The notes: generated by a model not told the origin, from the letters alone. 64,000 bases of DNA from Candidatus Poribacteria bacterium (GCA_965222225.1 CBDCTK010000002.1:4102296-4166295), one strand, 5' to 3'. Shown: positions 12,777-33,175, numbered from the stretch's first letter. Program-made: numbers and translations.

Positions 12777-12782
12777 CTCACT

Positions 12783-13853: not shown

Positions 13854-14248
13854 TTAGGGAAAATGATTCTCACACGCATTGGCCTCCTCCTCTATTTCTT
13901 CTCTTGTACCGTCGGGGTGTTGAATGGTGCGCCATCCATCGACGTGAGATGACGCATGAGCGTCGGTGTTTACGTGCTTCTTATGTTTATGGGCAGTAAT
14001 GGTGCCGCCGCCATTAGCATAGTTCCAACCCTCCTTGTCCTTGTCCTTGTCGGTACCAACTCTTGCATACACCTCCCAAAATCCATTGTTAAGCCCATAA
14101 TTAGACGCATAAGCGTCTGCATAAGTCCTAGGCGCACTACCGCTGTTTGTGATCCTGCACCTTGGTAAATACTCCATGAATATGCGATTTTGACGATTGT
14201 GAAGGCCAGGAATAAGGCTGGAATAGCGAACATAATGAGTTTCTTCAT
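13854..14248 (-). CDS. small secreted protein candidate; signal peptide (13970..14248 frame) and hydrophilic mature part (13854..14177 frame) lie in different frames
   Basis: MKKLIMFAIPALFLAFTIVKIAYS is a signal peptide; the overlapping frame encodes a Gly/Asn/His/Asp-rich hydrophilic polypeptide; either two genes or one frameshifted gene. Confidence 0.3.
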
Positions 14249-14274
14249 AGTATTTTTCCTTCTGTTAAAAGATG

Positions 14275-15183: not shown

Positions 15184-15549
15184 GCGGAACGGCTATCGAC
15201 TCACGTTTCGTTAATGTATTACCGCAAACCCTATGCCAAAACCGAAAACAGACACGAATTTGACGCCGGTGAAGCCGTTGCGTCTAGGCATGGTGCGGGT
15301 TCAGGAACTTTTCAGGCGAGGGAGACGGAATCCTACGGCAAGGCAGAAAGGGGTGGGATGTTTTGTCGAGTCAGTTCGGGAAAATGGGCTTAAGAGGTGT
15401 TTCAACTCTTGCCAGCAAAGGATTTCAAGCAAAATCAGACAAAATGTCCCCAAAAGCCACATTGTCACACCCTTTTGAGACGAGTGGTCGCGCGGCAGGA
15501 ATGAATGCGTATAGAACAGCAAGTGAAGTTGGGAAAAGCAAACACCTCC

Positions 15550-16090
15550 TCAGGCTTTGCCTTCAGACTTTCGCATGCGGTTTACGCGCTTGGTTAACGC
15601 CTCTCTTGAAATACTCAAGAGTCGAGCCGCAATGGTCTGCTTTCCATCGGCGCGCTTAAGCGCCTCCTCAATCACGAGTGGTTCTACTTCTTTCAACGAG
15701 GGCAGGTTTCGCGCGCGAGCTAATGTCTCGGTAAACCCGACCTCCCTCGCTCCGGTCACGGTGTCCTTGTGCAAAGCAGAAGTTTGTTCGTCAATCGCTT
15801 CCCGAAAAGGTTCTGTGGACAGTACGCCGCCTTTGTGCTGACTCACGGCGTCGTGCACCATCGCCTCAAGCTCTCTGATGTTTCCGGGGAAGTGGTAGGT
15901 CCCAAGCAGCGTAAAGAGCTCCGGTGGAGGCGTAGGCGTTTTTTGCCAAGCGCATTGCCGGATTGTTTGAGGAAATGGGATACGAGCAAAGGAATGTTCC
16001 CCTTGCGCTCACGCAGCGGAGGCAAAAGTACAGGTCTTCGCGGAAAGTTCCGCCCGCTGTCAGAAATTCAATCGTCCGATCCGTCGTCAC
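15550..16090 (-). pseudogene. sigma-54-dependent transcriptional activator (NtrC/Fis family), 5'-truncated and frameshifted remnant
   Basis: three frame pieces: GTFREDLYF (FREDLYYRL motif), PPLRERKGNIPLLVSHFLKQ (ESR/RER... sigma54-interaction C-region), and NIRELEAMVHDAVSQ...KQTIAARLLSISREALTKRVNRM (Fis-type HTH); Walker A, GAFTGA and receiver domain absent. Confidence 0.65.
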
Positions 16091-16294
16091 AACCGTTGGC
16101 GGCGCTCAATAATTAGCCGATTGATGCAGCCGCTTCTGGTCAAAAAATCGCCGTAGTCTCTCAATTGACGAGAAGCTAGGTTCAACCAAGTCATAATCGT
16201 TAAGATTAACCTCCTCATGCTTGACACTACTCCAAATCTATCCAGCCGAGGTACCACTGTCTGCTTTTCGGCGTAAGGCCTGGTTCTCTCCCCG

Positions 16295-18262
16295 TTACCA
16301 CCACGCGGTGAAGTTGTAGGTCTGGGTTTTAAACACAATTCCAAAAAGCGCCCAGAAACCCCCCACCGCAAATTCGCCCAAAATCATGCCGAAGAATAGG
16401 GGCAGCACTTGTCGATGCAACTTCAATCCGCCGTGTCTTAAAACCAGCCACTTAATCAGCCACGCCAGGAAGAACATCGACCAAAGATCCCGCATTCCGT
16501 ATGTACTGGATACTGCGTACCCCGCCGGGTGAAAGGGCCACCAGAGGAATTGCCACCGCATAACCATCAGGAAGATTCCGAACAACAGACCGTATGCAAA
16601 GAATCCCATGCCCATAAAATCTGTTGATGTCGGATAGGTCAACCATCCCTGTAAACGCTTGAACGGTTCTAGCCCGGCCCAAGTCATGGTAACGCCACTG
16701 TGTTGATACGCCGAATCCAATACCGCCCAAAAGGCGACCACCGTGCCAAGCACCGTGGCAATCAGCATAGCGAGAAGGACACGACGGTTGTTCATCCGCG
16801 ATTGATCGGCAAGCTTGAATCCCTCAAGTTGATGCGGCATGACATCGCTGTAGTGGGCACGGGTGAGGAACCAGAAGAAAGATAGAACAGACAGGTTACC
16901 CGGGCCTAATTTTCGTGTGCCCATTGCACCTACCATGAGGTATTCCGGTCCTGCGAAGTGTAGGTCGTGGATAGGGGAGCCTACCTCGGCACGGATCCGG
17001 GTAATGCCGATTTCCGTCATCAAGTACAGTGCGAAAAAGATTCCCGCTGCCCACATGGACATGCCCGCCTTCCAGCAGAACACCACTAGAAAAGCAAAGC
17101 CAAATATCAACCCAAGCACGGCGGTTCGATAACGAAGCGGCTCCGCAGCCCCAGCATCTCTGTGTTCTCGCGCACCAAGATGCAGTATCGATCTGAATAG
17201 TCGTGCCAAATGCCCTCGACCGATCCACAAGGCGATGACGAAAAGCGCGATGTACGCTCCCGTGCTCTGCTCCGGAAATTCCGGACGCTGGCGAAAGCCC
17301 ATCGCGCTGCCCAAGACTAACTGTGCTTTCCAAAAGAAGAAAAAGAACCAGCAGGAGAAAGCTATGTCGAGCGGAATGAGAAAGATGAGCCCCAACATAA
17401 ACGGACGGAAGGTCAGCGCCATATGACCTATGGCATCCCACGGCTTTGTTGTAAATAGAGTGCCTAGATTAATCGGTTTGAACCGAAGGTATGGAATCGA
17501 GGGAAAGAAGAAGTGAAACCCGTTAATCATTCCGATTAGGCTTACCACGCAGAAACTAATCAAAAACAGCCTATTCGTGAACAGTTTGGATGCGGGGTTC
17601 GTCATCTGGAAGGGGAGTTGAACAATCGGGAATGACAATCGCTCCCGATCCGACCACTGCTTGCGAATGATTATATTGACACAGATCATCACAAACATCA
17701 ATACACATATAAAGGCAGACCATATGAGTACCGGCGCTAGCCACGCTTCGATGTGTCGTGCGGTATAAAGGGACGATTCCGTTTTTACCCCTGTGATGTA
17801 CCCATCCAGAGTCCACTGGTCGGTGATGGCAAGCCATTTGGGAATGTAGCGGCCGAAGAGTTCGCTCCATTCGTTCTCCGGGGTGGCCAAGCCAAACGGG
17901 GCAGCCATAGTCGGCGGCAGGATTTGAATCATGCTGTGACCGACCAGCGCTGCCGACTGGCTCAGCATAATGTAGAGCGTGACCAGTTCGCCCTGGCGAA
18001 AAACCAGTTTGGGAGAGATTTTTCGCAGCGGGATGTTAAGAACGATTAGGATGAGTAGGTTGAAGACGACGTTGAAAAAGAGCGCAACGAGTGTCGAGTG
18101 GGCGGAATAGTAGATCGCTTCCATCTGCATGATCCAGTATGAGTTTAGCGGGATCAGCAGAATGGCGATCAGTATTGCGCGCCACGTCACAGCAGTGTCC
18201 TGATTTGGTTTGTCAAGGGTCATGTTCTGCGATTTTCCTCCGGCGTTCCGATAATCATCCAT
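16295..18262 (-). CDS. large polytopic integral membrane protein of unknown function (655 aa, at least 14 TM)
   Basis: continuous ORF, very hydrophobic, Trp/Phe-rich helices; no motif I can assign. Confidence 0.65.
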   Translation of the reverse strand: MDDYRNAGGKSQNMTLDKPNQDTAVTWRAILIAILLIPLNSYWIMQMEAIYYSAHSTLVALFFNVVFNLLILIVLNIPLRKISPKLVFRQGELVTLYIMLSQSAALVGHSMIQILPPTMAAPFGLATPENEWSELFGRYIPKWLAITDQWTLDGYITGVKTESSLYTARHIEAWLAPVLIWSAFICVLMFVMICVNIIIRKQWSDRERLSFPIVQLPFQMTNPASKLFTNRLFLISFCVVSLIGMINGFHFFFPSIPYLRFKPINLGTLFTTKPWDAIGHMALTFRPFMLGLIFLIPLDIAFSCWFFFFFWKAQLVLGSAMGFRQRPEFPEQSTGAYIALFVIALWIGRGHLARLFRSILHLGAREHRDAGAAEPLRYRTAVLGLIFGFAFLVVFCWKAGMSMWAAGIFFALYLMTEIGITRIRAEVGSPIHDLHFAGPEYLMVGAMGTRKLGPGNLSVLSFFWFLTRAHYSDVMPHQLEGFKLADQSRMNNRRVLLAMLIATVLGTVVAFWAVLDSAYQHSGVTMTWAGLEPFKRLQGWLTYPTSTDFMGMGFFAYGLLFGIFLMVMRWQFLWWPFHPAGYAVSSTYGMRDLWSMFFLAWLIKWLVLRHGGLKLHRQVLPLFFGMILGEFAVGGFWALFGIVFKTQTYNFTAWW

Positions 18263-18295
18263 TCTGAAAGGATCTCTATCGCCTTCGCTATCCGA

Positions 18296-19258
18296 TCAGT
18301 TGATTTGATTTACCGGACTGCGGGGTTTCTGACCTTGCAGAACACGCACTACCTCTTCCGCTCCTCTCGTTCGCATATCTTCCATCGATTCTTCCGAATA
18401 CCAGGCGCTGTGCGGCGTAATCCACACCCGTTCTTCGTGCAGAAGTGGATGGTCAACCGGTGGAGGTTCAGCCGACAGCACGTCAAGCGCTGCTCCTGCA
18501 ATCTGTCCGGACCTTACGGCTTCAAGCAACGCATCCTCGTCAATCAATGCACCGCGAGCGGTGTTGATTAGGAAGGCTGTGGGTTTCATCAATGAAAGCG
18601 ATTTGGAATTGATGATGTGCCGCGTTCCCTCTGTTAGCGGCACGTGTAGAGAGATATAATCCGATGTGCGCAGCAGCGTCTCCCAATCAACCAACTGAGC
18701 GTCGGAGGATTCAGGGGGCAACGAATCCAGGTAGGGATCGTGAACAACCACTTCTAGACCGAGACCGCGAGCCTTACTGCCTACTGCTCGACCAATACGC
18801 CCGAAACCCAACAAACCGAGCGTTTGTCCTTGAAGTCGGCGAATGGGCGCAACGACCTTGTTTCCCCATTCACCTCTACGAGTCGATTCGAGCAGACGTG
18901 GGAAACCGCGTGCGTGAGCCAATAGGGACGCGATGGCGTGAGTCGAAACCTCATCAACTGCGTAGTCGGGGACGTAGGTCACCCAAATACCGTGTTTGGT
19001 GGCTGCATCGATATCAATGGCATCAAGTCCGGTTCCCACCCTGCTGATAATCCGGCAACGCTCCATGGTGGCTATTAGCTCGGCAGGAACGGGTTGAAGG
19101 GTGACCATCAGTGCGTCAGCCTGTGCTACGACTTCACGTGAGGCAGGTGTGTCGAGACTACCTAGATGTGACACATTTGCGTCAATCGTACTTAACATTT
19201 CCTCCTCTATCCGGATGTCGCCGAATCCGGGATATGCAATTACAACAGTTGGTGCCAT
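18296..19258 (-). CDS. D-isomer-specific 2-hydroxyacid dehydrogenase (NAD-binding)
   Basis: GLLGFGRIGRAVGSKARGLGLEVVVHDP Rossmann motif and catalytic-domain architecture of the PGDH/glyoxylate reductase family. Confidence 0.85.
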   Translation of the reverse strand: MAPTVVIAYPGFGDIRIEEEMLSTIDANVSHLGSLDTPASREVVAQADALMVTLQPVPAELIATMERCRIISRVGTGLDAIDIDAATKHGIWVTYVPDYAVDEVSTHAIASLLAHARGFPRLLESTRRGEWGNKVVAPIRRLQGQTLGLLGFGRIGRAVGSKARGLGLEVVVHDPYLDSLPPESSDAQLVDWETLLRTSDYISLHVPLTEGTRHIINSKSLSLMKPTAFLINTARGALIDEDALLEAVRSGQIAGAALDVLSAEPPPVDHPLLHEERVWITPHSAWYSEESMEDMRTRGAEEVVRVLQGQKPRSPVNQIN

Positions 19259-19371
19259 TTGCTATATGCTCCTTCTTTATGGATTGTTTGGTAGTAACTC
19301 CCTGCGGTAGTTATTCGATTCTCCGCGTAATGGGGGCGATTGTCCGAAATTACTCCTGTCGTTCTCTACAA

Positions 19372-21351
19372 TTAAATTTGCGCATAAGTAATCAACAGCG
19401 AGCCTGGCGCTTTGTTGATTGTCACCTCAATCCCGTCGCTGAGAGCACTGCCTGTGACCGTTTCCACATCGCGCGAATCTTCGGATTTGAGTTCGTACCG
19501 TGCTTTTGGATCAAGCCCCCTTAAACTCAGTCGAGCTGAAAGGTAAGGGCTCTGCGGACGGCGAAATGCCAAGACCATGCCCTGTTTCAAGTCTTCACGG
19601 TGGAACTGGAACGCCATCCAAACGTCATCATTGGTCGAGTACGATGTCAGTGGATAGTAGTCTCCGTAAAAGAAGGGACGGATTCGTTTATATTCGGCTG
19701 CCGTCTTTTGAGCAATCTCGACCGGGAAGTTCGGGGAATGGACATCCCAGCCAAGAACGAATCCACTGTTCATCGCGCTACGTGATTCATAGGAATTTGG
19801 GTTGTTGCTACCGGTGCCGCTGCATGGCAGATAGTAGTGCAATCCATACGTGTGGCACTGGTATCCGTTCGGTTCATAGTAGTCGTAATCAGTGCGCCAG
19901 AGCGGCACGCTTCTGGAGGTGGTTTCAAGATCAATGCGCCGTCCGCCGCTGGCACAATTGTCGATGATTAACCCAGGATGTCGATTCAGCAGTTCATCCC
20001 AGAACGCATATAAACCTTCAATATGTCGGATTTCCGTCATTCCCTGGCGGTCCGGAGCGTCTGCCGTGCGCCAATGACGAAGCGGATCCATATTGAAATC
20101 CTGACGGTAGACGCTAATTCCCTGTCCTGTAATCATCCCGGAGATGTGCTCTATGAGCCAACGCCTCGCCTCAAGGTTCCCTAGATTTAACAATCCGTTT
20201 GGGTTGTCAGGAATCCTAAGAACCCAGTCGGGGTGTTCCCGGTCGAGCCACGATTCTTGATATACGCGCTCCGGTTCAAACCAGAGAAGGAATTTCATCT
20301 CAGCGTTCTTGGCGGCATCCGAAAGCGGCTTAAGCCGGTTGGGAAAATGATCTTCTCTAATGGTCCAATTCCCAACGCCGCTAGGCCAGCCGCCATCAAA
20401 CCACCCCGCGTCGAGCCACCAATTCTCGACATTCAATCCCAGCTCATGGTAACGTTGGGTAAATGCAATCTGATTGGACTCGGTCGATTCGTTTAGGGGA
20501 GAGCCACTGGCTGAAAAAGGCGTCGTCACGGGCTTACCGTCCTTTTGAGGGGTGTGGTGAGCCAAGATGAAACGCCTCAGCAGGTTGTGGCCTCGCATTC
20601 GATCTTCACCCTCCCAGAACAGCAAAAGTATCCGGGGTGTGCGAATTTCTTCGCCGGGATAAAGCTTCAGATGGGTCAATTCCATCCCGGATAGAATCCT
20701 CAGACTCTCCGCGTCGTCTCTGAGAAAGCTAATCGACCACTGCCCCGACCAGCCAATCCCCAGCATCACGCCTCCGCCGGGCGTTTCAGTGTTGAAAAAC
20801 GGAAGTGCTCGCGTATTGGAGGATCGTCCGCCTACCGGCGCAAGTTCAATCTTCGTGTTGGCGTGCAATACGTCTGTAATGGGGGCGAAATCGTTTCGGG
20901 AGGCCGAACTGCCCAAGGCACGATGGAGAACAAATTCGCCTTCCCCGTTGCGAGTGAAGACGGTATCTAGTGCCTGCACGTCCTCAAGGATGGGTGTGTG
21001 CGTAGCGCCCTCGTTCCTGAACTTAACAACCCACTCCACCGCCGGGAAGTCCGAGAAGATTTCCCATTCGCACTGGATAACAAGACCGGATTTGCTGTCT
21101 CTATAAGTCAGCAAGCCCGCTGTTTTCACGTCGTCATGGTGCGTCGTTTCCTTGCTGGATTCCCAGGTCTTGAGCAGGTTAGCGGAGGGTGTGCCACCAT
21201 AAGTGAATGAAAATGGTGGAAGGGTCTCTGTCGACAGGTGAGAATTTATCCACGATTGGACTTTGTTTTTTTCTTCTGTAGATTGCAGAAGCGACAAACT
21301 GCCCTCCTTGAGAATTCCTTCTGTGATGTCCTTCACTGGCGTGCGCGCCAT
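19372..21351 (-). CDS. glycoside hydrolase family 36-like (alpha-galactosidase-type) paralog 1
   Basis: GH36 signature motifs WWLDAGWF (DDGWF), KFLLWFEPERV (GLWFEPEMV), VYRQDFNMDP (KWDMN nucleophile) and IDNCASGGRRIDLE (CSGGGGR acid/base). Confidence 0.8.
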   Translation of the reverse strand: MARTPVKDITEGILKEGSLSLLQSTEEKNKVQSWINSHLSTETLPPFSFTYGGTPSANLLKTWESSKETTHHDDVKTAGLLTYRDSKSGLVIQCEWEIFSDFPAVEWVVKFRNEGATHTPILEDVQALDTVFTRNGEGEFVLHRALGSSASRNDFAPITDVLHANTKIELAPVGGRSSNTRALPFFNTETPGGGVMLGIGWSGQWSISFLRDDAESLRILSGMELTHLKLYPGEEIRTPRILLLFWEGEDRMRGHNLLRRFILAHHTPQKDGKPVTTPFSASGSPLNESTESNQIAFTQRYHELGLNVENWWLDAGWFDGGWPSGVGNWTIREDHFPNRLKPLSDAAKNAEMKFLLWFEPERVYQESWLDREHPDWVLRIPDNPNGLLNLGNLEARRWLIEHISGMITGQGISVYRQDFNMDPLRHWRTADAPDRQGMTEIRHIEGLYAFWDELLNRHPGLIIDNCASGGRRIDLETTSRSVPLWRTDYDYYEPNGYQCHTYGLHYYLPCSGTGSNNPNSYESRSAMNSGFVLGWDVHSPNFPVEIAQKTAAEYKRIRPFFYGDYYPLTSYSTNDDVWMAFQFHREDLKQGMVLAFRRPQSPYLSARLSLRGLDPKARYELKSEDSRDVETVTGSALSDGIEVTINKAPGSLLITYAQI

Positions 21352-21415
21352 CTATACGCTTTGGGAAGAGTCTTATTACACGCCAAGAACTCAGTCGGGA
21401 AATACAATCGACGTG

Positions 21416-23341
21416 TCATTGACGTCCTCGATATGTCACGAGAAGACTTGCTCGCGGTACGGGTTTGTCGATCGACAACCCTTCGGTCATTTCCGCCCCA
21501 CTGATTTGCCGATTGGTCCGGTTTCGAGATTCATCGCTCAAGGTGAGAAAATAATTTCCATCTGGGTTGAGTCTTCGCGGCAACACCTGAAGCGTGGAGG
21601 CGGAGCACTGTTCCCGTCGGAAGGCTAGGATGATTCCCTCGTCCAGATCCTGCCGATGCAACTGAAACGCGAGCCAGTCCTCGGGAGCAGATGAAGGTTT
21701 CGTTAGCGGGTAGAAATCGCGCAACCAGTAGGGGCGATTGACTCTCAATTCAGCCGTCGCTTCTCGCGCCAATTCAAATGGGAAATCGGCGTCCAACAAC
21801 TGCCACTGTGAAACGCCTCCGATGGTTGCGGAACTGCGGCAGTGATAAGTCTCGTGGCTATGCGTGCAGGCGAGATGCAACACAATGTAGGAACTCAATC
21901 CTATCGTCTGCACTTGGCGCCAGTCTGAATGATCGGAACCGCAACTCGTATCGCTCCGCCACATAGGAATGGCGCGCATACAGGTCTCAAGATCGATTCG
22001 TCTACCGCCGCTCGCGCAATTGTCAATTATTAAGTTCGGGCGCGCACCGAGAAGGTCGTCCCAAAACTGATAGAAACCCGCAACCCACATCATCTCGGTC
22101 ATCCCCTGCCGGTCCGCTGTATCCTTAGAACGCCAATAACCCAGCGGGTCAATGTTGAAATCTTCGCGGTAGATGTCTATTCCAAATTCGTCAATCAACC
22201 CTCCGATTCGTTCTGTCATCCATTGCCGGGCTTCGGGAATCCCAAAATTAAAAACACCGTGAGATTGATCCCACAACCTAAGCACTCATTGCGGGTGCTC
22301 CCCCCAAACCTCGGTTCCCTCATGGACACGCCCCGGCTCAAACCGCACGAGGAATCGCATCCCGTTCTCATGAACGGCATCTGCAATCGGTTTTAGCCCA
22401 TGTGGAAATTCCCGAGGTTTGGCGAACCAATTACCGACGCCGTGCGGAAAATCTCCTTCGAACCAAGCCGCGTCCAGCCAATAGGTATCTATTCCACACT
22501 GCGCAACCTTATCGATGAAATCAAGTTGGCCAGCCTCCGTGGGCCAGGTCGGGTGGCTGTGATAAACATCGAAGTTGTTCTCCGCAATCGGGACATCGGG
22601 CAACTCACCGCCTACCCTCGGGACATAATGCGCAAACATCAGTCGGCGAAATTGATTATGTGCTGCCGCCAATCCATCAGACCAAGGCATTAGAAGAATC
22701 CTAGGCGTTCTGATCTTCTCTCCGGGATGAAGCCGCAAGTGGGTGTGTGCCATCCCGGCTTGCAGATTCAGGCTTCCCGGTTGCGTTCGCGATAGCGAAA
22801 CTTTCCATTGACCCGTCCAGCCGATTGCGACGATTAGTCCCTCACCCCGATGTTCCGTAGTGAAATACGGAAATACGTTGTTAGACGATCGTCCACCCGT
22901 AGGTTGAAACGCGACTTTCTGACCGGCGTCCAATCGTGTTTCAAACGGGAGAAAACTCTGCTCGTTGCACGCATCACCATGAATTTGATGGAGCTTCACC
23001 GGTTCATCGGATTCTGTTGACAGGGCAATATCCAGTGGCAGAATCGTTTCTAGAATGGGCGTATCTTCTTCGCCTACGTTTTCGAAGTAAACAACCAACT
23101 CTACGGCAGTGAAGCCGCGATGTACCTTAACTTGCAACGTCACCACAAGATCGGTATCGGGTTCTTTGAGGGATTTCACAATCTGAAATTGGTCGCCGTC
23201 CGCTGCTTCTTCTTTGGTGCCTTCGGACGTGTGCGGCAACGCCTTGAAACGGGCATCCCCGTACCTGAATGAGAGCGGAATACTAGAGCACATTTCCGTC
23301 ACATCTCCCTCAAGCATGGTTCTGAATTCGCCCATCCACAT
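21416..23341 (-). pseudogene. GH36-like paralog 2 interrupted by an in-frame TGA at 22286..22288 (aligned to a Trp codon in paralog 1)
   Basis: minus strand reads ...GEHPQ*VLRLWDQSH versus paralog 1 ...REHPDWVLRIPDN; both halves (22286..23341 and 21416..22285) are the same frame and keep the GH36 motifs (YWLDAAWF, RFLVRFEPGRV, IYREDFNIDP, IDNCASGGRRIDLE). Confidence 0.7.
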
Positions 23342-23357
23342 ATTGCCTTTTTCCCTT

Positions 23358-25394
23358 CTATTCGACCCGTTTATAGGTGATTATCGCAGCGTGCGGTTTC
23401 TCGGCGATCCGGGTAACCAAGCCCTCTTCCATCAGTTCACGCCCAGTCATCTCGCGTGAGGTATCGGCGTCCATGTCCTCTAAGAGGTAACGCGCGTCTG
23501 CAACCAATTCGTGTAAGTGCAGCCGGGCGGATTCGTAGATGCTCTCTTCGCGTCGAAACGCTTGTACCATTCCTTCGCCATCCTCGGGCAGGTTGAATTG
23601 CCACGCCATCCAAACACCTTTATCTTGGCTGTACGATGTCAAAGGATAATAATCGCCGTAATAAAACTTGCGAATGTCGAGGTACTGCTCTAGCAGACAT
23701 CTCGCCTCCTCGCCCTGATCGCCGTCGGCCTCCTCCCACAATTGAGTCATCAATCCTGCGGTCATGACGCTACGAAATTCGTATTCATTTCCCTTTTTCA
23801 AAACGGCGCCACGTGCAGCCATGTGCAGCGGCACCCACTGAAAGAGGCCGTAGCTGTGGCATTGGGCGTGGATGCTGTCATGAGCCCAGTCTGTTCGATG
23901 CAGTGCGGTGCTGCGACCAATTGATTCGAGGTCGATGCGCCTCCCCCCGCTCGCGCAGTTATCTATCATCAGATGGGGGTGTCGTTGTATCAGGTTGTCC
24001 CAGAAGGCATAAAGCCCTTCAATATAGCGAATCTCCGTTATGCCCTGTCGGTCGGGCGCGTCGGCATGTCGCCAATATTCCAACGGCGCAATATTGGCAT
24101 CTTCACGATACCAATCAAGTCCAAATTCAACGATTCGGTCAGAGATAAAATCGGTCAAGAACGCTTGCGCATTGGGGTTGCCCATGTTGAACATCAGTTC
24201 GTCGGCGCTCATCTGGCTGCGCCGGCTCTCATAGACTATCCACCTGGGGTCGTCGTGGGGGATGGGCCAGCCGTTTGTTTTCCACTGTTTGTAGTTGTCC
24301 TCTCCGTTTCCAAGTTCCAGCAGCCAGTTAGGGCGCGCCTTGAACGAAGACCAAGGGGTATCTTTGCAAACGCGGTGCGGTTCAAACCAGAGCAGAAATT
24401 GACCACCGGATTGATGCAACATATCGGAGATTGGTCGGAAACCTTGGGGATAGAGGTCACTTTTCACCTCCCAATTTCCGGGCATGCTCCACCATGAACC
24501 TTTGCCGAACCATTCCGCATCAATCCAATAGCACGTAATGGGTAGTTCGTGCTTGACGACTCGTTGGAGGTTCGTCAGATGTTCGGCGGCTGGCGTTCCT
24601 CCCCAGCTACCGAGGATGACGGGCAAGGTGAGAGGTTCGCCGTTAGGTTGGGGTCGGTGGTGGGCAAGAATAAACCGACGGAGCAAGTTGTTTCCCCTGA
24701 TGCGTGCGCCGTGCCAGAATAACATCAGAATGCTCGGTGTTCGGATAGTTTCTTCCGGATGCAACTTCAGATGCGTTAAAGCCATGCCCGCACCAAGCCG
24801 CAGCGCGTTTTCTCCTTCCCGGCAGAAAGTAGCTTCCCACTCACCCGTCCAGCCGATTCCCGTAACAAATCCATTCGATCCTGACTCAACGTTAAAAAAC
24901 GGCAGTATTTCGCTGGACGATCTGCCTCCGCCGGGTTGGAGGTGTACCTGTTCTCCCGGTTCAAGCGGTTTTTCTACCGGCGCGAAATCATCAATGCAGC
25001 AAAGGGCGCCTTTGGAATAGTGCAAGACGGCTGACTCTTCGGCAAGCGGCAGGTTCGCATCAAGCGGAAGGATTTGCTCCAAGATTGGAGTATCGGTTGC
25101 GCCTCCATTCTTGAAATTCAGAACCCATTCGATGGCGGGAAAATGACGATAACTGATTGCCTCTACGTTTACTTCGAGGCGTGTATCGGGATCTGTGAAG
25201 GTGAGGGTGTGTGCGGTACGTTCCTCATCAAGCGTTTCTCTGCTATATACGGTCTCCCAACTCTTGATGAAATCTTCGGAGGAATGCCCGTCGTAGACAA
25301 AAGAGAATGCTCGTCGCGTTGCCTCGGGACAGAAACATTCCGCAATCCATGAATCTACCGCCGTCATTTCTTCCGATGCTGGCTCTACGGACAT
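23358..25394 (-). CDS. GH36-like paralog 3
   Basis: CYWIDAEWF, QFLLWFEPHRV, WYREDANIAP, IDNCASGGRRIDLE. Confidence 0.8.
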   Translation of the reverse strand: MSVEPASEEMTAVDSWIAECFCPEATRRAFSFVYDGHSSEDFIKSWETVYSRETLDEERTAHTLTFTDPDTRLEVNVEAISYRHFPAIEWVLNFKNGGATDTPILEQILPLDANLPLAEESAVLHYSKGALCCIDDFAPVEKPLEPGEQVHLQPGGGRSSSEILPFFNVESGSNGFVTGIGWTGEWEATFCREGENALRLGAGMALTHLKLHPEETIRTPSILMLFWHGARIRGNNLLRRFILAHHRPQPNGEPLTLPVILGSWGGTPAAEHLTNLQRVVKHELPITCYWIDAEWFGKGSWWSMPGNWEVKSDLYPQGFRPISDMLHQSGGQFLLWFEPHRVCKDTPWSSFKARPNWLLELGNGEDNYKQWKTNGWPIPHDDPRWIVYESRRSQMSADELMFNMGNPNAQAFLTDFISDRIVEFGLDWYREDANIAPLEYWRHADAPDRQGITEIRYIEGLYAFWDNLIQRHPHLMIDNCASGGRRIDLESIGRSTALHRTDWAHDSIHAQCHSYGLFQWVPLHMAARGAVLKKGNEYEFRSVMTAGLMTQLWEEADGDQGEEARCLLEQYLDIRKFYYGDYYPLTSYSQDKGVWMAWQFNLPEDGEGMVQAFRREESIYESARLHLHELVADARYLLEDMDADTSREMTGRELMEEGLVTRIAEKPHAAIITYKRVE

Positions 25395-25693
25395 GATATT
25401 TCCCTTCTGGATAACTCAGCAAAATCCATTTTATGTGTTCAGTGACTAGTGGTTAGTGCAAACCCGACAGACACTGATGGGCAACGCATGAGGATTCAAT
25501 CTACGATCTGATGATTGAAGATTTCAACTACGAATCAATCGGCGGCGGAATCGGAATGGAGGTTTAAATTTGATGCGCGGTAGAGGCAACGCGTTTTGAG
25601 ATGGTGGGCAATGTCCACCCTACAATAACTGGGTTCTACGAACATGATATTTCCTTCTGGAGAACTCGAATCTAGAACTGTGGACGGATCGAG

Positions 25694-27694
25694 TTAGTCA
25701 ACCCTCTTGTACCTTACTACTGCCGCGCCCGGGCAATCCTTGATAGGAATCGTAAAACCGTTTTCCATCAATTCCCTCCCGCTCATGACCGCTTCTCCAG
25801 CAACATCAAAAGTGTTTAGTTTGTAGTCGGACTCCGGTACTAATCCATGAAGGGTGAAGATGCAAGTGTCGGTCTCATTCTCGGGTCGGCGGAACGCCTG
25901 CACCATCCCCTCACCCGACTCCGGCATGTTGAACTGCCAGGCTATCCAGACGTTGTTCTCCAGGCTGTAGGGGGTAAGCGGATAAAAATCACCGTAATAG
26001 TAATCCACAATCTCCCGCCGCTGCCGGTGCAACTTTCGCAGCGCTTCGTAGTCAATCTCTTTGACACGTATGTCAATTGCACTGTTAATGCTCGGATAGC
26101 AGGTGCTCCAGAATGCGTACGATTCTACTGATGTATGGCCTGCTCCGCCGTAGTCGGCGCTCGCATCGGCGACGTTGCCGCCACCGTGGTAGGGAATCCA
26201 AAAAGAGATGCCGTAGGTCTGACACTGCTCTCCCACGGGTTCGTATTGATAGTCGGTCCGCCAAAGCGGCACGGCGCGGCGAAGGGTCTCAAGATCGTTC
26301 CGCCGTCCGCCGGAGGCGCAGGTGTCAATGAGCATATTTGGGCGGCGGCGGATCAACTCGTCCCAATATGCCAAATACCCGGTCACATGCTTGATTTCGG
26401 TGATGCCTTGCCTGTTTTCCGCGTCGTTTCCCCGCCAGTAATCTAGGGGATCCATATTGAAATCCTGCCGATAGACATCAATGCCCTGCAGGGTCAGGAG
26501 TTCATCAACGTGATTGGTTAACCAGTTCAAGGCGTCCGGATTTCCGAGGTCGAGCAGTCCGCCATCCGCGCCGCCCAACACCCATTCGGGATGATTCTCG
26601 GTGAGCCAGGTATTAGCGGAAACCCGCTCCGGCTCAAACCAAACCATCGTCTTGATGTCCTTGGAATGAGCGTAGTCGCTAATGGCACGCAATCCTCTCG
26701 GGAAACGCTCGGTGTCCACCTCCCATGTACCCACGTTTCCCCAGCCACCATCACAGGGATACCAGCCGGCATCCATCCACCAATATTGGAGTTTCAGGTT
26801 CTCCTCAATATAGCGATTGATAAACATGATTTGGTTCTCTTCGGTTGCGTTTACCATCTCGCCGTATACGCGGTAACTGGAACCGAGAACACGGGGTTCG
26901 GGAAGTTGCCCGTAGGGTTTGGGCATATTGTGATCCATCATCCACCGCCGCCAGACATTCTGCGAATCGATCCAGTCCCTGTTCTTCCAGAACAGAAGCG
27001 CAATCAACGGCGTGCGAACTTCTTCTTGGGGATGCAGCGTAAAGTGGGTAAGTTCCTGACCGGCGGTGACGTGCATTGTCTTATCCGAACTGCAACTGAA
27101 GTCGGCAGACCATTGACCGGGCCACCCAACAACCACAATAACGCCTTCATCTTTTCTACCTTCAAGGTTGAAGTAGGACATGTCCGTATTCGTCGGACGT
27201 CCCCCGGCACCGCTAAAGCGCTTGTTTGTGCCGGGTTGCATCACCGCTTGGAAGGGCCTGTAAGCGCTCGGTTCGGCGAATCCGCCCGCAAAGTGGTGCA
27301 GCACGACTCTGTCCTCGTTTTCCTCTGCCCCGAAATTCAAACCTATGTCCAAGGCTTGAATGTCTGAAAGAATGGGGATATCCGAGGTCCCGGTATTCTT
27401 GAAGTAGAGCGTCCACTCGACCACTGGAAAATCGTCGTATTCAACCGCCACGCATCGCACTTGCAAGCCCGTGTGTGAATCCGTGTATGTGAGTGTCCGC
27501 CTAGTGCGGCATTCGTCCAATTCCTCGGAAGCGTCTTCGGTGTCGCAATCTTTGAGAAAATCGGATGATGTCCTATCGCCGTACTTGAAGGAGAAAGGCG
27601 GAACAGACGCATCTCGTCCTAGATTTAAGGCGATCCACTCTCTCCCCGATGCCATCTCTTCAGCGGTTGGTTTTGCTGTGTTTTCAGCGCTCAT
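25694..27694 (-). CDS. GH36-like paralog 4
   Basis: QYWWMDAGWY, KTMVWFEPERV, VYRQDFNMDP, IDTCASGGRRNDLE. Confidence 0.8.
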   Translation of the reverse strand: MSAENTAKPTAEEMASGREWIALNLGRDASVPPFSFKYGDRTSSDFLKDCDTEDASEELDECRTRRTLTYTDSHTGLQVRCVAVEYDDFPVVEWTLYFKNTGTSDIPILSDIQALDIGLNFGAEENEDRVVLHHFAGGFAEPSAYRPFQAVMQPGTNKRFSGAGGRPTNTDMSYFNLEGRKDEGVIVVVGWPGQWSADFSCSSDKTMHVTAGQELTHFTLHPQEEVRTPLIALLFWKNRDWIDSQNVWRRWMMDHNMPKPYGQLPEPRVLGSSYRVYGEMVNATEENQIMFINRYIEENLKLQYWWMDAGWYPCDGGWGNVGTWEVDTERFPRGLRAISDYAHSKDIKTMVWFEPERVSANTWLTENHPEWVLGGADGGLLDLGNPDALNWLTNHVDELLTLQGIDVYRQDFNMDPLDYWRGNDAENRQGITEIKHVTGYLAYWDELIRRRPNMLIDTCASGGRRNDLETLRRAVPLWRTDYQYEPVGEQCQTYGISFWIPYHGGGNVADASADYGGAGHTSVESYAFWSTCYPSINSAIDIRVKEIDYEALRKLHRQRREIVDYYYGDFYPLTPYSLENNVWIAWQFNMPESGEGMVQAFRRPENETDTCIFTLHGLVPESDYKLNTFDVAGEAVMSGRELMENGFTIPIKDCPGAAVVRYKRVD

Positions 27695-27821
27695 GATGGT
27701 TTTCTCCCGTTACACAATTTATGTTAAGTGCGATGCAGGCAATACAGTTTGAACTGTTCAAGACTTACGCAAAAGCAGAAGTGCTAATTTCTGTGACAAT
27801 CTCATATTGCAGGGCTTTTGT

Positions 27822-27959
27822 GGGGAATAACGAGGGATCAAGGGAACGAATAGTGACTGCGATAGAGATCCATGAAGGTATATAGAAACACCAAAACCCC
27901 GTGCACATAAGCCCCAGCGCGGGATCAAACGAACGAATAGTGAGTGCGATAGAGATTCC
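27822..27959 (+). repeat. two copies of the modular dispersed repeat (27822-27871 and 27921-27959)
   Basis: GGGAATAACGAGGGATCAAGGGAACGAATAGTGACTGCGATAGAGATCC ... GGGATCAAACGAACGAATAGTGAGTGCGATAGAGATTCC. Confidence 0.6.
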
Positions 27960-28147
27960 GGCAGGTTGCAAGGTATCAGGAACCGCTTGAGACTTTTTCA
28001 ATGGTCAACCAAAAAGACCAAATGTCTAAAATCTCCCCCGCTTTTCTTCAACGCTTGATTGACACCGTTTGTTGTCTCGCTCAAATGTACAAAGTCGATC
28101 TAAGTCCGATTGTAACTTAATCAGGAATTGCGCGATTCGGTTTTATC

Positions 28148-29008
28148 TTAAGCTATCGTGGGGCCGTCGCCAACCAGTGTGGTACGGTGCAAGATACGTG
28201 CGTATTTGTTTCCATCCCATGGTCGAGCGCGGTGCAGGCAGCACATATTGTCATATACGACGAGATCATTCGCGCGCCATTTGTGGCTGTAGACGAACTG
28301 TGGTTGGGTAGACCAGTCCAGCAATTCCTTCAGCAACGCTTTGCCCTTTTCAAGGGGCAAACCGATAATGTGCGTTGCATAGGAACCCACCAGCAGCGCC
28401 TTTTTTCCCGTTTCCGGAATTGTCCGCACCAAGACTTGGTTCTGAGACGGTGTCTCCTCCAGAAAGGCTTTGCTCATCAAGTTCGGCGCAATCTGATCAC
28501 GTGAGTGTGCCAAGCTGTGTTCTGCGACCAACCCCTCAAGGCTCGCCTTCTTTTCCTCGGACAAGGTGGCGTAGGCGGCGCACAAGCTGGCGAATTCGGT
28601 CCCCCCGCCGTCCGGAGGAACGACCTTTGCCGCTAACAGTGATCCTCGCAACGGTACGCGCTTGAACGAGCCGTCGGAATGCCAAAGTCCGTTGCCCCGG
28701 TGATAGACCATCCGGGGGTCCTCTGGCGGAATGAGTTCCTCATTTTCATCGAGGTTCGTAAGAACACCGACGGGGCCGCCGTCGCCGATGGGATCATTCC
28801 GCATCGTCATTTCTATCTTGCCCAAGCCTTCCGTGAACGTGACATGCTGTTCGTCCGTGATTTCTTGATCGTGGAAGATCAGAACCGCGTGTTCAGCAAG
28901 CGTGGTGCGAAGTTGCGCGAACGTTTCTTGGCTAATTGGCGAAGTAAGGTCAATACCCTGTACCTCGGCTCCGATGTTTTCTGTCAGTTTACGAACGGTG
29001 AATGCCAT
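28148..29008 (-). CDS. TauD/TfdA-family Fe(II)/2-oxoglutarate dioxygenase
   Basis: WHSDGSF (HxD iron ligands) and overall 286 aa TauD-like layout. Confidence 0.8.
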   Translation of the reverse strand: MAFTVRKLTENIGAEVQGIDLTSPISQETFAQLRTTLAEHAVLIFHDQEITDEQHVTFTEGLGKIEMTMRNDPIGDGGPVGVLTNLDENEELIPPEDPRMVYHRGNGLWHSDGSFKRVPLRGSLLAAKVVPPDGGGTEFASLCAAYATLSEEKKASLEGLVAEHSLAHSRDQIAPNLMSKAFLEETPSQNQVLVRTIPETGKKALLVGSYATHIIGLPLEKGKALLKELLDWSTQPQFVYSHKWRANDLVVYDNMCCLHRARPWDGNKYARILHRTTLVGDGPTIA

Positions 29009-29738
29009 TGTCTCGTCTCATCAATCTTATCAACGCAGCCACGGGAAAACCCCTAGCGAGTCAGGTGTCAACTATATATTATCGGTGGGAAAAAAGCAAT
29101 AGAAAAATATGTGCTGTAGTGAGTAGCAAAGCAATCCTCCGGTTGTAGTGGATGTAGAAGTGTGTTATGGCTGCGACGAAATCTATTGGTAAGTCCACTT
29201 CCGTCCGGGATTCAGTTGTAGGAGCATTCATGGCTGCGTTGCGGGACTTGAGAGCAACCCTCGGGACGCCTACGGTTTCTTGTGGATCGACTATCATGAA
29301 CTATGGTATAATTACAGCGTTTCCGCACAGTAGTCATGTCCTTGAATCGTTAATCATGGAACAGAGCAATCGCTGATTCCTTTCCACTGCTCTTCGAAGT
29401 CACAGTCCATAATGTCCTCGAATCGGTTGGTATTGCCAAGAAATCTACCTGAATTCGCGGCGGATCGAAATGCTTCAAACCAGACTGACGATTTAACCCT
29501 CCAATGCACCACGCTTTCAGTCACGCTCGATTTGTAAGAAGCCGGATCGATACCCGTCGCTGATTCTCCTCTGCTCAGAAATTAACAAATCAAAGTACCG
29601 GGTAATGAGGTGCCGTCTTTGTGCACAGTCCCTCCCGTTTCTGAAGCCACGTTTATCTTTCCGGGGTAACTCGGCAGATTAGCATCCGGCTAGCGGTGAC
29701 CTTTACAAGTGATTGCCCCATTTTCGATAGGAGGAATC

Positions 29739-30731
29739 ATGCCGTTAAAATCGAACTACAGACTGCTGTTTTTCGCAGGACTTTTTGCCATTCTATTGAC
29801 TGAGGCGATGGTCGCGAGAAACGCGCTCGCCTTCAACACAAGTCGGATTGTTTTTGCATCCCTGAGAGATGGCAACAAGGAAATCTATGTAATGGATGCC
29901 GATGGAGGAAACCAAGAAAACCTGACAAACAATCCAGCGTATGACGGCCAGCCGGATTGGTCCCCTGACGGGACGAAGATTGCATTCGTTTCCCGCCGAG
30001 ACGGCGTTTCTCAAATCTACGTAATGAACGCCGATGGAAAGAACCCGATTAGACTGACAGATGGACCGCGGTGGAAGCGGGATCCAGACTGGTCTCCCGA
30101 TGGGGGTAAGATTGCATTCACCGTCAACGCAGATTGGAAAAAAGAAGAGTGGTTAGATCATATCGCCGTGATGGATGCTGATGGAAATAATCGTGTGAAG
30201 CATGAAGACCACGCGATGCAGCCATCATGGTCTCCTGATGGGGGTGAGATTGCATTCACATCCTGGAGAGATGATTGGAACTGGGATATTTACGTGATAG
30301 GCGCTGACAGACGGGGGCTTAAAAGGGTGACGCACGATTTAGCGCCTAAATTCAGACCAGCGTTTTCTCCCGACGGGGGACGGATTGCATACATGTCCGA
30401 GCACGAAGGATTCAATCACATCTATGTGGTGGGGGCGGATGGTAGAAATCGGGTGAGGCTTACGCACAATCAAGAGAATCATTTGGACCCCGCATGGTCT
30501 ACCGATGGACAGGCGATTGCATATTATCTCTCGGAGGGCATCTGGCCCGGGAACTTTCGCAGCACGATGCACTTGATGGCCTCCAATGGAAGGTATATTA
30601 GGCAACTTAGCGATGGCCGTAATGCGCGCGATCTCTACCCCGACATTAGCCCGCTAGGATTTGCTGTGTCCCCAGCCGCGAAGTTTGTCACCATCTGGGG
30701 CAAGATCAAAATGCTAACATTGGGTCGTTGA
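29739..30731 (+). CDS. TolB-like PD40 beta-propeller secreted protein, paralog 1
   Basis: AGGAGG 7 nt upstream of ATG 29739 (ORF track starts at GTG 29709); signal peptide; six or more PD40 units (P.WSPDG.KIAF.S.RDG...IYVMDADG.N..RLT); conserved C-terminal tail VTIWGKIKMLTLGR. Confidence 0.75.
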   Translation: MPLKSNYRLLFFAGLFAILLTEAMVARNALAFNTSRIVFASLRDGNKEIYVMDADGGNQENLTNNPAYDGQPDWSPDGTKIAFVSRRDGVSQIYVMNADGKNPIRLTDGPRWKRDPDWSPDGGKIAFTVNADWKKEEWLDHIAVMDADGNNRVKHEDHAMQPSWSPDGGEIAFTSWRDDWNWDIYVIGADRRGLKRVTHDLAPKFRPAFSPDGGRIAYMSEHEGFNHIYVVGADGRNRVRLTHNQENHLDPAWSTDGQAIAYYLSEGIWPGNFRSTMHLMASNGRYIRQLSDGRNARDLYPDISPLGFAVSPAAKFVTIWGKIKMLTLGR

Positions 30732-30785
30732 TGATGTGTGCGACGCGGTTGACACATCCGCTTATTTTCAAAATAGGAGGAACAG

Positions 30786-31763
30786 ATGTCATTCACAGCT
30801 AGACGATTCTTGACTACAATGCTTGTCGTCTCCGTGTTAATCCAGATGCAGTTTGCTAAAAGCGGTTACGCCGCTCAGAGACCCAAGATTGCCTTCAGCT
30901 CTACGAGAGATGGAAACAGCGAAATCTACGTCATGGATATTGACGGACGTAATCATGTAAGACTAACGTATGATCCGGCGATTGACTATGATCCGTCGTG
31001 GTCTCCGAATGGCGATAGGATTGCGTTTGTCTCCAACAGAGACAATGGAGTTGAACAAATCTACGTCTTGGATTCTGACGGACGGAATTTGATGAGACTG
31101 ACAAACGAAGCGGTAAATCGGGAGCCGACGTGGTCTCCCACCGGAGAAAAGATTGCGTACACTCGCAGCAGAGGAGGACGTCAGGTTTGGGTAATGGACG
31201 ACGACGGACAAAACCAGACACGTTTGACTCAAATAGGCAAGAACCTTCACCCAGCCTGGTCGCCTGATGGGGTACGAATTGCCTTCGTATCCGTTAGGGA
31301 CGGAAGGACCGGTATATACGCAATGGATAAGAACGGTAATAATCAGGAAAGAATCACCCTACACATGGTGATTCCGGGCCATCCATCGTGGTCTCCCGAC
31401 GGTAAATGGATTGCGTATGAATCTCTTGACGAAGAAAGCAAATTTCAAATCTTTCTCGTGAAAACCGATGGCAGCGGTCTTTCGAAAAGGCTAACACACA
31501 ATCCACCGAATAAATGGCGTCCTGCATGGTCCCCCGATGGCGACACGATTGCCTACGTGTCAGTAGAGCCCTTTCCCTTCCAAAATATGACGATTCACTT
31601 GATGACTGCCCGTGGAAATCATCTTAAACAACTCAGTGAGGAGCACAATGGTTCGGATAACGATCCCGATTGGTATGCTCCGGTAGGATGGTCGGTGTCT
31701 CCCGCCGCAAACTTCATTACCATGTGGGGCGAGATTAAAAAGCCAACATCGGCTCTCCGTTGA
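30786..31763 (+). CDS. TolB-like PD40 beta-propeller secreted protein, paralog 2
   Basis: AGGAGG RBS, signal peptide, PD40 repeats, tail ITMWGEIKKPTSALR. Confidence 0.75.
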   Translation: MSFTARRFLTTMLVVSVLIQMQFAKSGYAAQRPKIAFSSTRDGNSEIYVMDIDGRNHVRLTYDPAIDYDPSWSPNGDRIAFVSNRDNGVEQIYVLDSDGRNLMRLTNEAVNREPTWSPTGEKIAYTRSRGGRQVWVMDDDGQNQTRLTQIGKNLHPAWSPDGVRIAFVSVRDGRTGIYAMDKNGNNQERITLHMVIPGHPSWSPDGKWIAYESLDEESKFQIFLVKTDGSGLSKRLTHNPPNKWRPAWSPDGDTIAYVSVEPFPFQNMTIHLMTARGNHLKQLSEEHNGSDNDPDWYAPVGWSVSPAANFITMWGEIKKPTSALR

Positions 31764-31813
31764 TGTGTACGGCGCGCTTGAAACTGCAGCTTTTTTTAAA
31801 AAAGGAGGAACAG

Positions 31814-32790
31814 ATGTCATTCAAAGCTAGACAACTGACGGGGACAGCGCTTGTCATCTCCCTGCTAATCCAGATGCACATTGCAGCAAGCAGTTACGCC
31901 TCTCGCAGAACCAAGATAGCCTTCACCTCTACGCGTGACGGGAATACTGAAATTTATGTCATGGATGGTGACGGGAGTAACCAGAGAAGAGTAACGGTAA
32001 ATCCAGCAAGTGATGAATATCCGGCATGGTCTCCCGACGGCAAAAAGATTGCCTTTGTTTCCAATAGAAACAACGTAAACAAAGATCACAAGCAAATCTG
32101 GGTGATCGACGCCGACGGGTAGAACCCGATTAGACTGACGGACGGGTTGGTGGACTCTTATCCGGATTGGTCGCCAGACGGCACGAAAATTGTGTACGAC
32201 GCCCATCTTCATCCAGAGGAACATCATGTAGCCCCCGCCGGGATTACTGTAATGGATGCGGATGGGAACAACAAGAGACTACTTACGGGTGAAGGCGCAC
32301 ATGCGTCGTGGTCGCCCGATGGAAAACGAATAGCATTTGTCTCCGGTAGAAATGAAAAAGTCAGTCACATTTTCGTAATGGATGCCGACGGACAGAATCA
32401 GATAGAGTTAACGCATGACTTCGTGCATAAACGTCTGCCATCATGGTCACCCGACGGGAAGCGCATCGCGTATGTGGGCGATAACGTGATTTGGGTGGTG
32501 GATAGCGACGGAGCGAACCAGAGGCAACTCACCAATATAATTACGGAAGAACACCCTACATGGTCACCGGACAGTGAATCCATTGCTTTTCACTCTTTTA
32601 CAAGGGATCGTGGAACTGGGATTTACATGGTGGATGTAACTAACGGCGCTGTCGACGTTTTGCAAGTTGATCCCGCGTTCTTTAATCTCGACCCGATTGG
32701 CTCTATCCCGGAGGACTCTCCGTTTCGCCGGAAGGTAGCCGGATTACAATTTGGGGCAGGATGAAGAGTACCGCGCTCAGCCTCCGGTGA
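31814..32790 (+). pseudogene. TolB-like PD40 paralog 3 with in-frame TAG (32120..32122, Lys in paralog 4) and a 1-nt deletion near 32690
   Basis: IDADG*NPIRLTDG vs paralog 4 IDADGKNPIRLTDG; conserved tail ITIWGRMKSTALSLR only readable in the +1 frame after CCGATT vs CCGGATT difference. Confidence 0.7.
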
Positions 32791-32952
32791 GGGGTGCGCT
32801 TGGTCGGTGGCAGTTAACGTTGTCTGAACTGTGATTCATGAGAATACGGGATTACCTTGATTGTACGTGATTAGTTGCGAGTCATGAGGCGACTATTCCG
32901 CATCTTGCAGCCACTAGGAATTAGGGAAAAAACCTAGTCTATAAGAAAAAAG

Positions 32953-33105
32953 GGATGAACGGAGTGAACAGCGAGTGGGATGGACTATCGCACGGGATTT
33001 GCTATCGATCAAGTGAGCGAAAAGCGAACGCGATAGCCAGTCTTGCTCCTTATTCAGTCGCTTGATCGATATTCACTCACTTGACCGATAGAGGTCCCTT
33101 GCGCT
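32953..33105 (+). repeat. modular dispersed repeat, composite copy with internal inverted words
   Basis: GATCAAGTGAGCGAAAAGCGAACGCGATAG ... CGCTTGATCGAT ... TTCACTCACTTGACCGATAGAGGTCCC. Confidence 0.5.
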
Positions 33106-33175
33106 AAAAACTGTCGGTTGATGTCTAGAATATTGTAATTCGCATATTAATTTTGCTCTGACTAAGGAGGAAAAA

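Follow-up and report, generated by a model that had tools for sequence, protein, structure and literature searches.

Why one of four neighbouring glycosidase genes should carry an in-frame TGA where the others encode tryptophan is the question raised by a 64,000-nucleotide (nt) stretch of DNA from Candidatus Poribacteria bacterium (GCA_965222225.1 CBDCTK010000002.1:4102296-4166295), referred to below as the window. The four genes, P1 to P4, resemble family GH36 and lie together at positions 19372-27694; the one with the internal stop is P2. An original prediction, made from the sequence alone, had described the genes as the product of an old tandem amplification and the TGA as either a very recent nonsense mutation or a sequencing error. 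The account favoured here differs on both points. The cytoplasmic glycan-catabolism locus of Candidatus Poribacteria to which P2 belongs most likely brings together four anciently separate GH36 subfamilies, side by side, and P2 itself is very probably a genuine pseudogene.

The presence of four minus-strand GH36-like genes is confirmed by the open reading frames (ORFs) and their translations, with P2 divided into two parts by its internal stop.

19372-21351, minus strand: P1, a GH36-family glycosidase gene encoding 659 amino acids (aa); Melibiase match of 106 bits and GH36C match of 29.4 bits.
21416-23341, minus strand: P2 as a whole, 641 codons with a single internal stop.
22286-23341, minus strand: N-terminal fragment of P2, 351 codons, ending at the premature TGA at 22286-22288; GH36N match of 33.9 bits and Melibiase match of 46.5 bits.
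21416-22285, minus strand: C-terminal remainder of P2, 289 codons plus stop; both catalytic Asp motifs are present, unlinked from the N-terminal part.
23358-25394, minus strand: P3, a GH36-family glycosidase gene encoding 678 aa, among them a 33-aa insertion that follows the WFEP strand.
25694-27694, minus strand: P4, a GH36-family glycosidase gene encoding 666 aa, with a Melibiase match.

The catalytic motifs quoted in the original prediction are exact in P1 (LDAGWF, LWFEPERV, YRQDFNMDP and DNCASGGRRIDLE) and occur as close variants in P2-P4 in a MAFFT alignment. The predicted length range of 660-680 aa approximates P1, P3 and P4 (659, 678 and 666 aa), with P2, at 641 codons, falling below it, and the pairwise identity of the four, predicted at 40-55%, was measured at 34.1-44.4%. 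Differences between the paralogs are concentrated in loops and include insertions of 33 aa in P3 and 13 aa in P4. An exact-sequence look-up of the window's P1 and of the P2 fragment matched no record.

The TGA at 22286-22288 is codon 352 of the 641 codons of P2 (coding strand ...CCG CAA TGA GTG CTT...). The same alignment column holds Trp in P1, P3 and P4 (within HPDW, RPNW and HPEW, respectively) and in all orthologs, so the predicted correspondence between the stop and the Trp of P1 holds well beyond that gene. Contigs of relatives that carry the locus (L001, L002, L003 and L006-L010) were found by means of the restored P2 sequence; some of the relatives are labelled Candidatus Poribacteria in their source records, the assemblies are of low coverage (6-16x), and their contig names suggest that they derive from long reads. 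L001 is 98% identical to the window at the nt level, without a gap over 9.1 kb, and L002, a closed genome of 6.15 Mb, is 85% identical. Among the full-length P2 orthologs retrieved by the same search, P0001 is 97% identical and the others are 79-82% identical to restored P2. P0001-P0007 are full-length and have Trp at the position in question, and the codon is TGG in L001, L007, L009, L008 and L002; relative to these sequences the stop in the window is premature, as in a pseudogene. In an AlphaFold2 model of P0001, the intact ortholog, built from a 55-sequence alignment, the stop position cuts the barrel after strand 4 and before helix 4.

The selection acting on P2 distinguishes it from the genes around it. 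Pairwise Nei-Gojobori (NG86) estimates of the ratio of nonsynonymous to synonymous substitution rates (dN/dS, omega) among the window, L001, L007 and L009 give 0.67-0.99 for P2 in every pair, against 0.09-0.36 for P1, P3 and P4 (P1 0.14-0.25; P3 0.12-0.36) and 0.02-0.19 for the nearby TauD, dehydrogenase and DUF6785 genes. Relative to these six neighbours (0.02-0.36), purifying selection on P2 is relaxed, as it would be in a pseudogene. When P2 is compared with the more distant L008 and L002, omega falls to 0.37 and 0.21, respectively, which is expected if constraint was lost only recently. Between the window and L001, P2 differs by 7.5 synonymous and 19.5 replacement changes, whereas P1, P3 and P4 taken together differ by 94 and 54 (Fisher p about 0.001).

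Polarised against three sister sequences, the window's copy of P2 has accumulated 5 synonymous changes, 11 replacements and 1 stop of its own, and most of these replacements fall on residues conserved out to L002. W333R, in the N-terminal fragment, removes the Trp of W-F-E-P, and G541R, in the C-terminal remainder, replaces a Gly, both residues being invariant in a 55-member family alignment headed by P0001; P469S, H475R, D500H, G590R and I626K are further private replacements at sites invariant among P2 orthologs. The two halves of the gene, described in the original prediction as otherwise intact, are so in that no further stop and no frameshift is present in P2, but not at these two family-invariant sites. 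Some of the window's variants are found elsewhere (W39S in P0132 and P0133, and R347G in P0128), and because they recur in independent assemblies the differences seen in the window are taken to be real polymorphisms. The private substitutions are unevenly placed, with 14 of the 16 lying downstream of the TGA (binomial p 0.0007). Since the synonymous changes are equally skewed (0 upstream and 5 downstream), the pattern reflects a recombination mosaic and not differential selection; gene-to-gene variation in dS also shows such a mosaic.

The same gene has been damaged by other routes in sister lineages. P2 of L007 lacks 2 nt of a (GC)n run within the catalytic C-A-S-G-G motif; L009 and L010, which come from two different samples, have in common a 1-nt deletion, a TAG and a TGA; and in L008 the codon for W427 has become TGA. 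In L006 and at least four other assemblies, including genomes of 6.4-6.6 Mb, a deletion has removed P3 and left the initial third of P4 fused to the second half of P2. This fusion (L006 8001-9332; proteins P0140-P0144 in the 6.4-6.6-Mb genomes) combines P4 nt 21-661 with P2 nt 1011-1926, leaving a chimeric ORF of 443 aa and only P1 intact. A stepwise route to some of these lesions can be followed across strains, in that S444R, seen in L001, creates the (GC)4 run in which L007 lost GC, and R347G, seen in the window, creates a G6 run in which L009 and L010 lost one G. In view of the omega of 0.67-0.99, the 11 private replacements and these independent lesions, a choice between a very recent nonsense mutation and a sequencing error understates the decay of P2. 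Single-base indels found in one low-coverage assembly only (L001 P4, L009 P3/P4 and L008) were not used as evidence, and truncated genes of the cluster that sit on short contigs (P0123, P0124 and others like them) are contig-edge cases that were not counted as lesions. The L008 locus also carries insertion sequence (IS)-type transposase genes (DDE_Tnp_1, DUF4096) at 5392-6839, between its P4 and P3 orthologs, and has lesions in P4, P3, P2 and the DUF6785 gene, although at 11x coverage some of these indels may be errors.

Several points weigh against reading P2 as a pseudogene. The TGA rests on a single base of the assembly, position 22286, where the coding strand has A instead of G, and exact-match scans of genome and metagenome collections found no match to the TGA allele in other assemblies; the wild-type 19-mer gave a single match, in Paenibacillus (L015), which looks like chance. 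The excess of replacements is marginal when window-private changes alone are considered (Fisher p 0.058), and, given the recombination mosaic, no reliable date can be put on the stop. Assembly errors could account for some of the single-base indels, among them those in L001 P4 and L009 P3/P4, and P3 of L010 is intact where P3 of L009 has frameshifts.

Were the TGA itself an error of sequencing or assembly, P2 would be intact and functional in the organism. In favour of this, the difference is a single base (TGG versus TGA), the stop allele is confined to one assembly among those searched, and an intact gene of 641 aa is present in L001, the closest relative. The surrounding 9.1-kb block, however, is free of gaps relative to L001 and its other genes have the full length of their orthologs, so that local quality looks good. 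The same copy of P2 bears radical private replacements at invariant residues (W333R and G541R), all pairwise comparisons within the strain group put the omega of P2 close to 1, W39S and R347G recur in independent assemblies, and the gene is broken in other ways in sister lineages. An error is judged unlikely, and a wrong base call at the TGA would in any case leave standing the conclusion that P2 is unconstrained. Alternatively, the UGA might be read through, by a near-cognate tRNA-Trp, as selenocysteine or under an altered code, such that some full-length enzyme is made. UGA is the leakiest of the stop codons and is misread by tRNA-Trp in bacteria, and in P2 it stands exactly at a Trp codon. 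Yet TGA terminates 16 of the 39 large ORFs in the window, P2 itself included, several of them at lengths matching those of their orthologs. No tRNA gene and no Rfam match, hence no selenocysteine insertion sequence (SECIS), was found within the window, and nothing in it indicated recoding as selenocysteine or under code 4 or code 25. Selenocysteine in place of a structural Trp would have no evident rationale, P2 is without purifying selection and has lost the invariant Trp333 of WFEP, and the same gene contains TAG codons and frameshifts in sister lineages; read-through of this kind is very unlikely.

It is scarcely credible that the two halves of P2 are made separately, by a restart at the GTG that follows the TGA, and reassemble as an active split barrel. 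The GTG is in frame and immediately follows the stop, a GGAG lies about 12 nt upstream, and reassembly of split (beta/alpha)8 barrels is known from other systems. No relative has this arrangement, however, both halves evolve without constraint, and the break would separate strand 4 from helix 4 of the modelled barrel. A protein of 289 aa that starts at the GTG after the stop site, P0138, was considered as an instance of the same lesion and rejected as a contig-edge gene call: the reading frame runs without a stop to the start of its contig, L005, 91 nt upstream, and the codon at the site is TGG. As for the origin of the cluster, a tandem amplification specific to this lineage within Poribacteria, followed by fast divergence, would suit genes that are adjacent, co-stranded and of common family, architecture and length, and two homologs examined in organisms from outside the Poribacteria set are each single-copy at their locus. 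Each of the four genes is nevertheless closer to proteins of other phyla (49-65% identity) than to its neighbours (34-44%). P1 is 60-65% identical to proteins outside its close Poribacteria relatives, including those of Latescibacteria and Dehalococcoidia, and P2 49%; P3 reaches up to 55% to outside proteins in an exhaustive representative search, and P4 60-63% to proteins of Armatimonadota, Phycisphaerae, Planctomycetota and Verrucomicrobiota. The trees, which are distance-based, unrooted neighbour-joining trees, agree. In a tree of 93 sequences each paralog nests with its L002 ortholog in a separate subfamily, and among 200 bootstraps on 56 taxa the four paralogs formed one clade in 0/200 and any pair of them were sisters in 0/200, against 197/200 for P4 and 200/200 for P2 with their cross-phylum sets. 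Because outside identity exceeds mutual identity and neither clade nor pair is recovered, the cluster is, on these comparisons, a juxtaposition of four old subfamilies and not an amplification in this lineage, an origin by local duplication being highly improbable. The old amplification envisaged in the original prediction is thus set aside, and the cluster has been conserved at least since the lineages of the window and L002 split.

By sequence, fold and catalytic residues alike, P1-P4 belong to GH36 (clan GH-D), as had been predicted. Matches to PF02065 (Melibiase) reach 106 bits in P1 and 89.9 bits in both P3 and P4, and 46.5 and 33.8 bits in the two P2 fragments, against a cut-off of 27, and matches to GH36N and/or GH36C (PF16874, PF16875) are near or above cut-off in the four genes. 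A phmmer search of the PDB returned solely GH36 alpha-galactosidases, the best being LaMel36A (2xn0, E 6e-35). The putative nucleophile of P1 (Y-R-Q-D) aligns with that of 2xn0 (I-K-W-D), and its acid/base residue (G-G-R-R-I-D) with G-G-G-R-F-D of 2xn0; both also align with 4fnq. These two Asp residues are invariant in the 55 family members (D394 and D450 in P0001 numbering) and present in all four window genes. The P0001 model is of high confidence (predicted local distance difference test 91.6, predicted template modelling score 0.92) and shows a (beta/alpha)8 barrel flanked by N-terminal and C-terminal beta-sandwiches. Foldseek places it at template modelling (TM) scores of 0.78-0.83 to 2xn0, 4fnr, 3mi6 and 8k1a (0.81 to 2xn0; E 1e-40 to 1e-43), whereas TM scores to GH31 and GH97 are only about 0.5.

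Family membership does not carry specificity with it. Throughout the 55-member alignment the motifs depart from those of characterised GH36 enzymes, with D-A-x-W (Ala invariant), R-x-D (Arg invariant) and G-G-R-R-x-D in their place, and the N-W-E of barrel strand 1 is absent, so that the canonical sugar-binding residues of EC 3.2.1.22 are not found. In LaMel36A and AgaA the second Asp of D-D-G-W, the Lys of K-x-D and the N-W-E have roles in galactose binding. Since the departures fall at sugar-binding positions, specificity for alpha-galactosides cannot be assumed, and the source label 'alpha-galactosidase' would be best regarded as a family label that does not establish specificity. A match of 55-58 bits to the GH36 beta-L-arabinopyranosidase BAD1528 in NCBIfam, where the cut-off is 1100, was not used as a functional assignment. 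No signal peptide was found in the four GH36 proteins, whose ORFs are already maximal and in which no 10-residue stretch of the first 50 residues exceeds a mean Kyte-Doolittle value of about 1.0; being without a signal peptide or a hydrophobic N-terminus, the proteins are probably cytoplasmic, in agreement with the original prediction.

Three neighbouring genes are conserved with the cluster.

28148-29008, minus strand: TauD/TfdA-family dioxygenase gene, the conserved upstream neighbour (Pfam TauD, E 7e-60).
18296-19258, minus strand: D-2-hydroxyacid dehydrogenase gene, the conserved downstream neighbour (Pfam 2-Hacid_dh_C, E 2e-59).
16295-18262, minus strand: gene for a DUF6785/DUF6784 polytopic membrane protein, a conserved neighbour (DUF6785, E 1e-153; DUF6784, E 1e-33).

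The last of these, an ORF of 655 aa, was considered as a fifth paralog and rejected because its Pfam matches are those of a DUF6785/DUF6784 membrane protein. The gene order is TauD, P4, P3, P2, P1, D-2-hydroxyacid dehydrogenase, DUF6785, sulfatase, amidohydrolase and an enolase-superfamily (MR_MLE) protein, and it is kept from TauD to MR_MLE in L001 and L002. The TauD gene is syntenic in L001, L002, L006, L007, L008 and L009, and the dehydrogenase gene is intact and syntenic in all related loci. P1 is without disabling change in L001, L002, L003, L006, L007, L009 and L010, a possible exception being L008, with a 1-nt insertion at codon 10. The DUF6785 and dehydrogenase genes are retained with P1 in related loci, with omega of 0.03-0.11 (0.03-0.10 for DUF6785 alone); L008 is again the exception, with a 74-nt deletion in its DUF6785 gene. 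P1, the dehydrogenase and the DUF6785 membrane protein thus remain under strong constraint, and the last may be a candidate importer of the substrate of the cluster. A scan for promoters and terminators over 16000-29800 gave a signal no higher than the shuffled expectation, and operon boundaries were not drawn.

The rest of the window encodes ABC permeases, an EamA transporter, two MR_MLE proteins, a GH109-like oxidoreductase and five tandem PD40 propeller proteins, which fits a carbohydrate-catabolism neighbourhood. The PD40/Tricorn-like beta-propeller paralogs occupy 29709-36067 on the plus strand, with a mutual identity of 41-47%; one of them, at 32147-32764, is cut short and shares 72% identity with the copy at 33176-34162, and a similar array lies beside the GH36 cluster in L001, L002, L007 and L009. 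The two MR_MLE genes, at 6345-7520 (plus strand) and 36419-37639 (minus strand), are 42% identical, and a 126-aa ORF lies at 5632-6012 (plus strand) within the 1.7-kb gap that extends from the EamA transporter gene to an MR_MLE gene. At 44688-45254 and 45409-46131 (plus strand) there is a tandem pair encoding proteins of about 190-240 aa that are 69% identical.

The junction between the DUF6785 and sulfatase genes differs between strains. In the window, about 4.7 kb at 11529-16296 separate the two genes, and this segment is absent from L001, L002 and L007. It carries two tandem lipoprotein-like paralogs without a Pfam match, one intact at 12783-13796, the other broken by a frameshift into two parts, 12444-12776 and 11765-12724. 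Two further ORFs lie at 14275-15183 and 15550-15861; the latter encodes 103 aa and occupies the position of an HTH_8 gene, also of 103 aa, in L009 and L010. L007 has an intact 265-aa PhyH gene at another junction, that between the sulfatase and amidohydrolase genes. A further 2 kb, at 51915-53907, is without a long ORF, and because a 79-aa ORF within it (52301-52540, plus strand) resembles the C-terminal end of a tyrosine recombinase (...GRWKSPRMPAHYAR...), it is probably the remnant of a mobile element.

These elements can be assembled into a provisional account of the locus. The region would form part of a glycan-catabolism locus in the genome of a sponge-symbiont member of Candidatus Poribacteria, in which four cytoplasmic GH36-family retaining exo-glycosidases may trim imported oligosaccharides, with Y-R-x-D-x-N predicted to supply the nucleophile Asp and C-x-x-G-G-R-R-x-D the acid/base Asp. 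The four subfamilies would most likely act on different linkages or sugars of these oligosaccharides, and the substrate diversification proposed in the original prediction is plausible. In this strain group P2 appears to have lost its selective value, its substrate presumably being no longer relevant. It would first have gathered replacements at conserved sites, after which, in the lineage of the window, a TGG-to-TGA transition would have truncated it at codon 352, inside the barrel, and the truncated protein is expected to be inactive. Low-level read-through of the UGA by tRNA-Trp would restore the ancestral residue, yet only in a copy that is without Trp333.

Should this account hold, its consequences are largely confined to annotation: P2 is to be annotated as a pseudogene and not as two genes, and the four genes are not to be treated as a recent expansion. 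Caution is also warranted with the name 'alpha-galactosidase', since at conserved sugar-binding positions these proteins do not match the characterised GH36 enzymes. The conserved trio of P1, the 2-hydroxyacid dehydrogenase and the DUF6785 membrane protein is of interest in its own right; a literature search found no paper connecting Poribacteria with GH36 and none mentioning DUF6785. It may tentatively be suggested, as a rather doubtful proposition, that the D-A-x-W / R-x-D proteins are not alpha-galactosidases, and that the four subfamilies together with DUF6785, the 2-hydroxyacid dehydrogenase, TauD and the sulfatase constitute a pathway that handles one particular glycan of host or algal origin, possibly a sulfated one. 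If this were true, the repeated independent loss of P2 would mark a recent change in the glycans available to the symbionts.

Among known systems, the GH36 subgroup-I alpha-galactosidases, exemplified by LaMel36A of Lactobacillus acidophilus (2xn0) and AgaA and AgaB of Geobacillus stearothermophilus (4fnr and 4fnq), offer the structural comparison. The window proteins resemble them in the three-domain fold (TM 0.78-0.83), in their Melibiase, GH36N and GH36C matches, and in the alignment of the catalytic Asp residues, the Trp of WFEP and the Cys of C-x-x-G-G; with these catalytic residues aligned, a retaining double-displacement mechanism would be expected. They differ in that identity is only 16-20%, in being about 70 residues shorter, and in having D-A-x-W for D-D-G-W, R-x-D for K-x-D, G-G-R-R-x-D for G-G-G-G-R-F-D and no N-W-E. 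The closest relatives are instead proteins named 'alpha-galactosidase' or NPCBM(NEW2)-GH36 from Armatimonadota, Phycisphaerae, Planctomycetota, Verrucomicrobiota and Latescibacteria, with 49-65% identity over the full GH36 portion. This group comprises 6108 clusters at 50% identity, and the window paralogs fall in four different subfamilies of it. Many of its members have an extra N-terminal NPCBM/NEW2 domain (PF08305) of about 180 aa, which is absent from the four window proteins.

The least ordinary aspects of the locus are the D-A-x-W / R-x-D branch of GH36, for which no characterised member was found, and the set of strains that keeps the stepwise route of gene loss. In other respects P2 is a pseudogene at an early stage of decay and the cluster is ordinary biology. 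P2 is like the unitary pseudogenes of host-associated bacteria in which a Trp codon has become nonsense, with TGG changed to TGA, dN/dS near 1, invariant residues lost and lesions in sister strains, and beside these it is nothing unusual. What makes it notable is that the route from replacement to slippage-prone repeat to indel is visible across strains, with its intermediates preserved, and on a small scale the locus shows cleanly how a carbohydrate-degradation island of a sponge symbiont is losing a gene.

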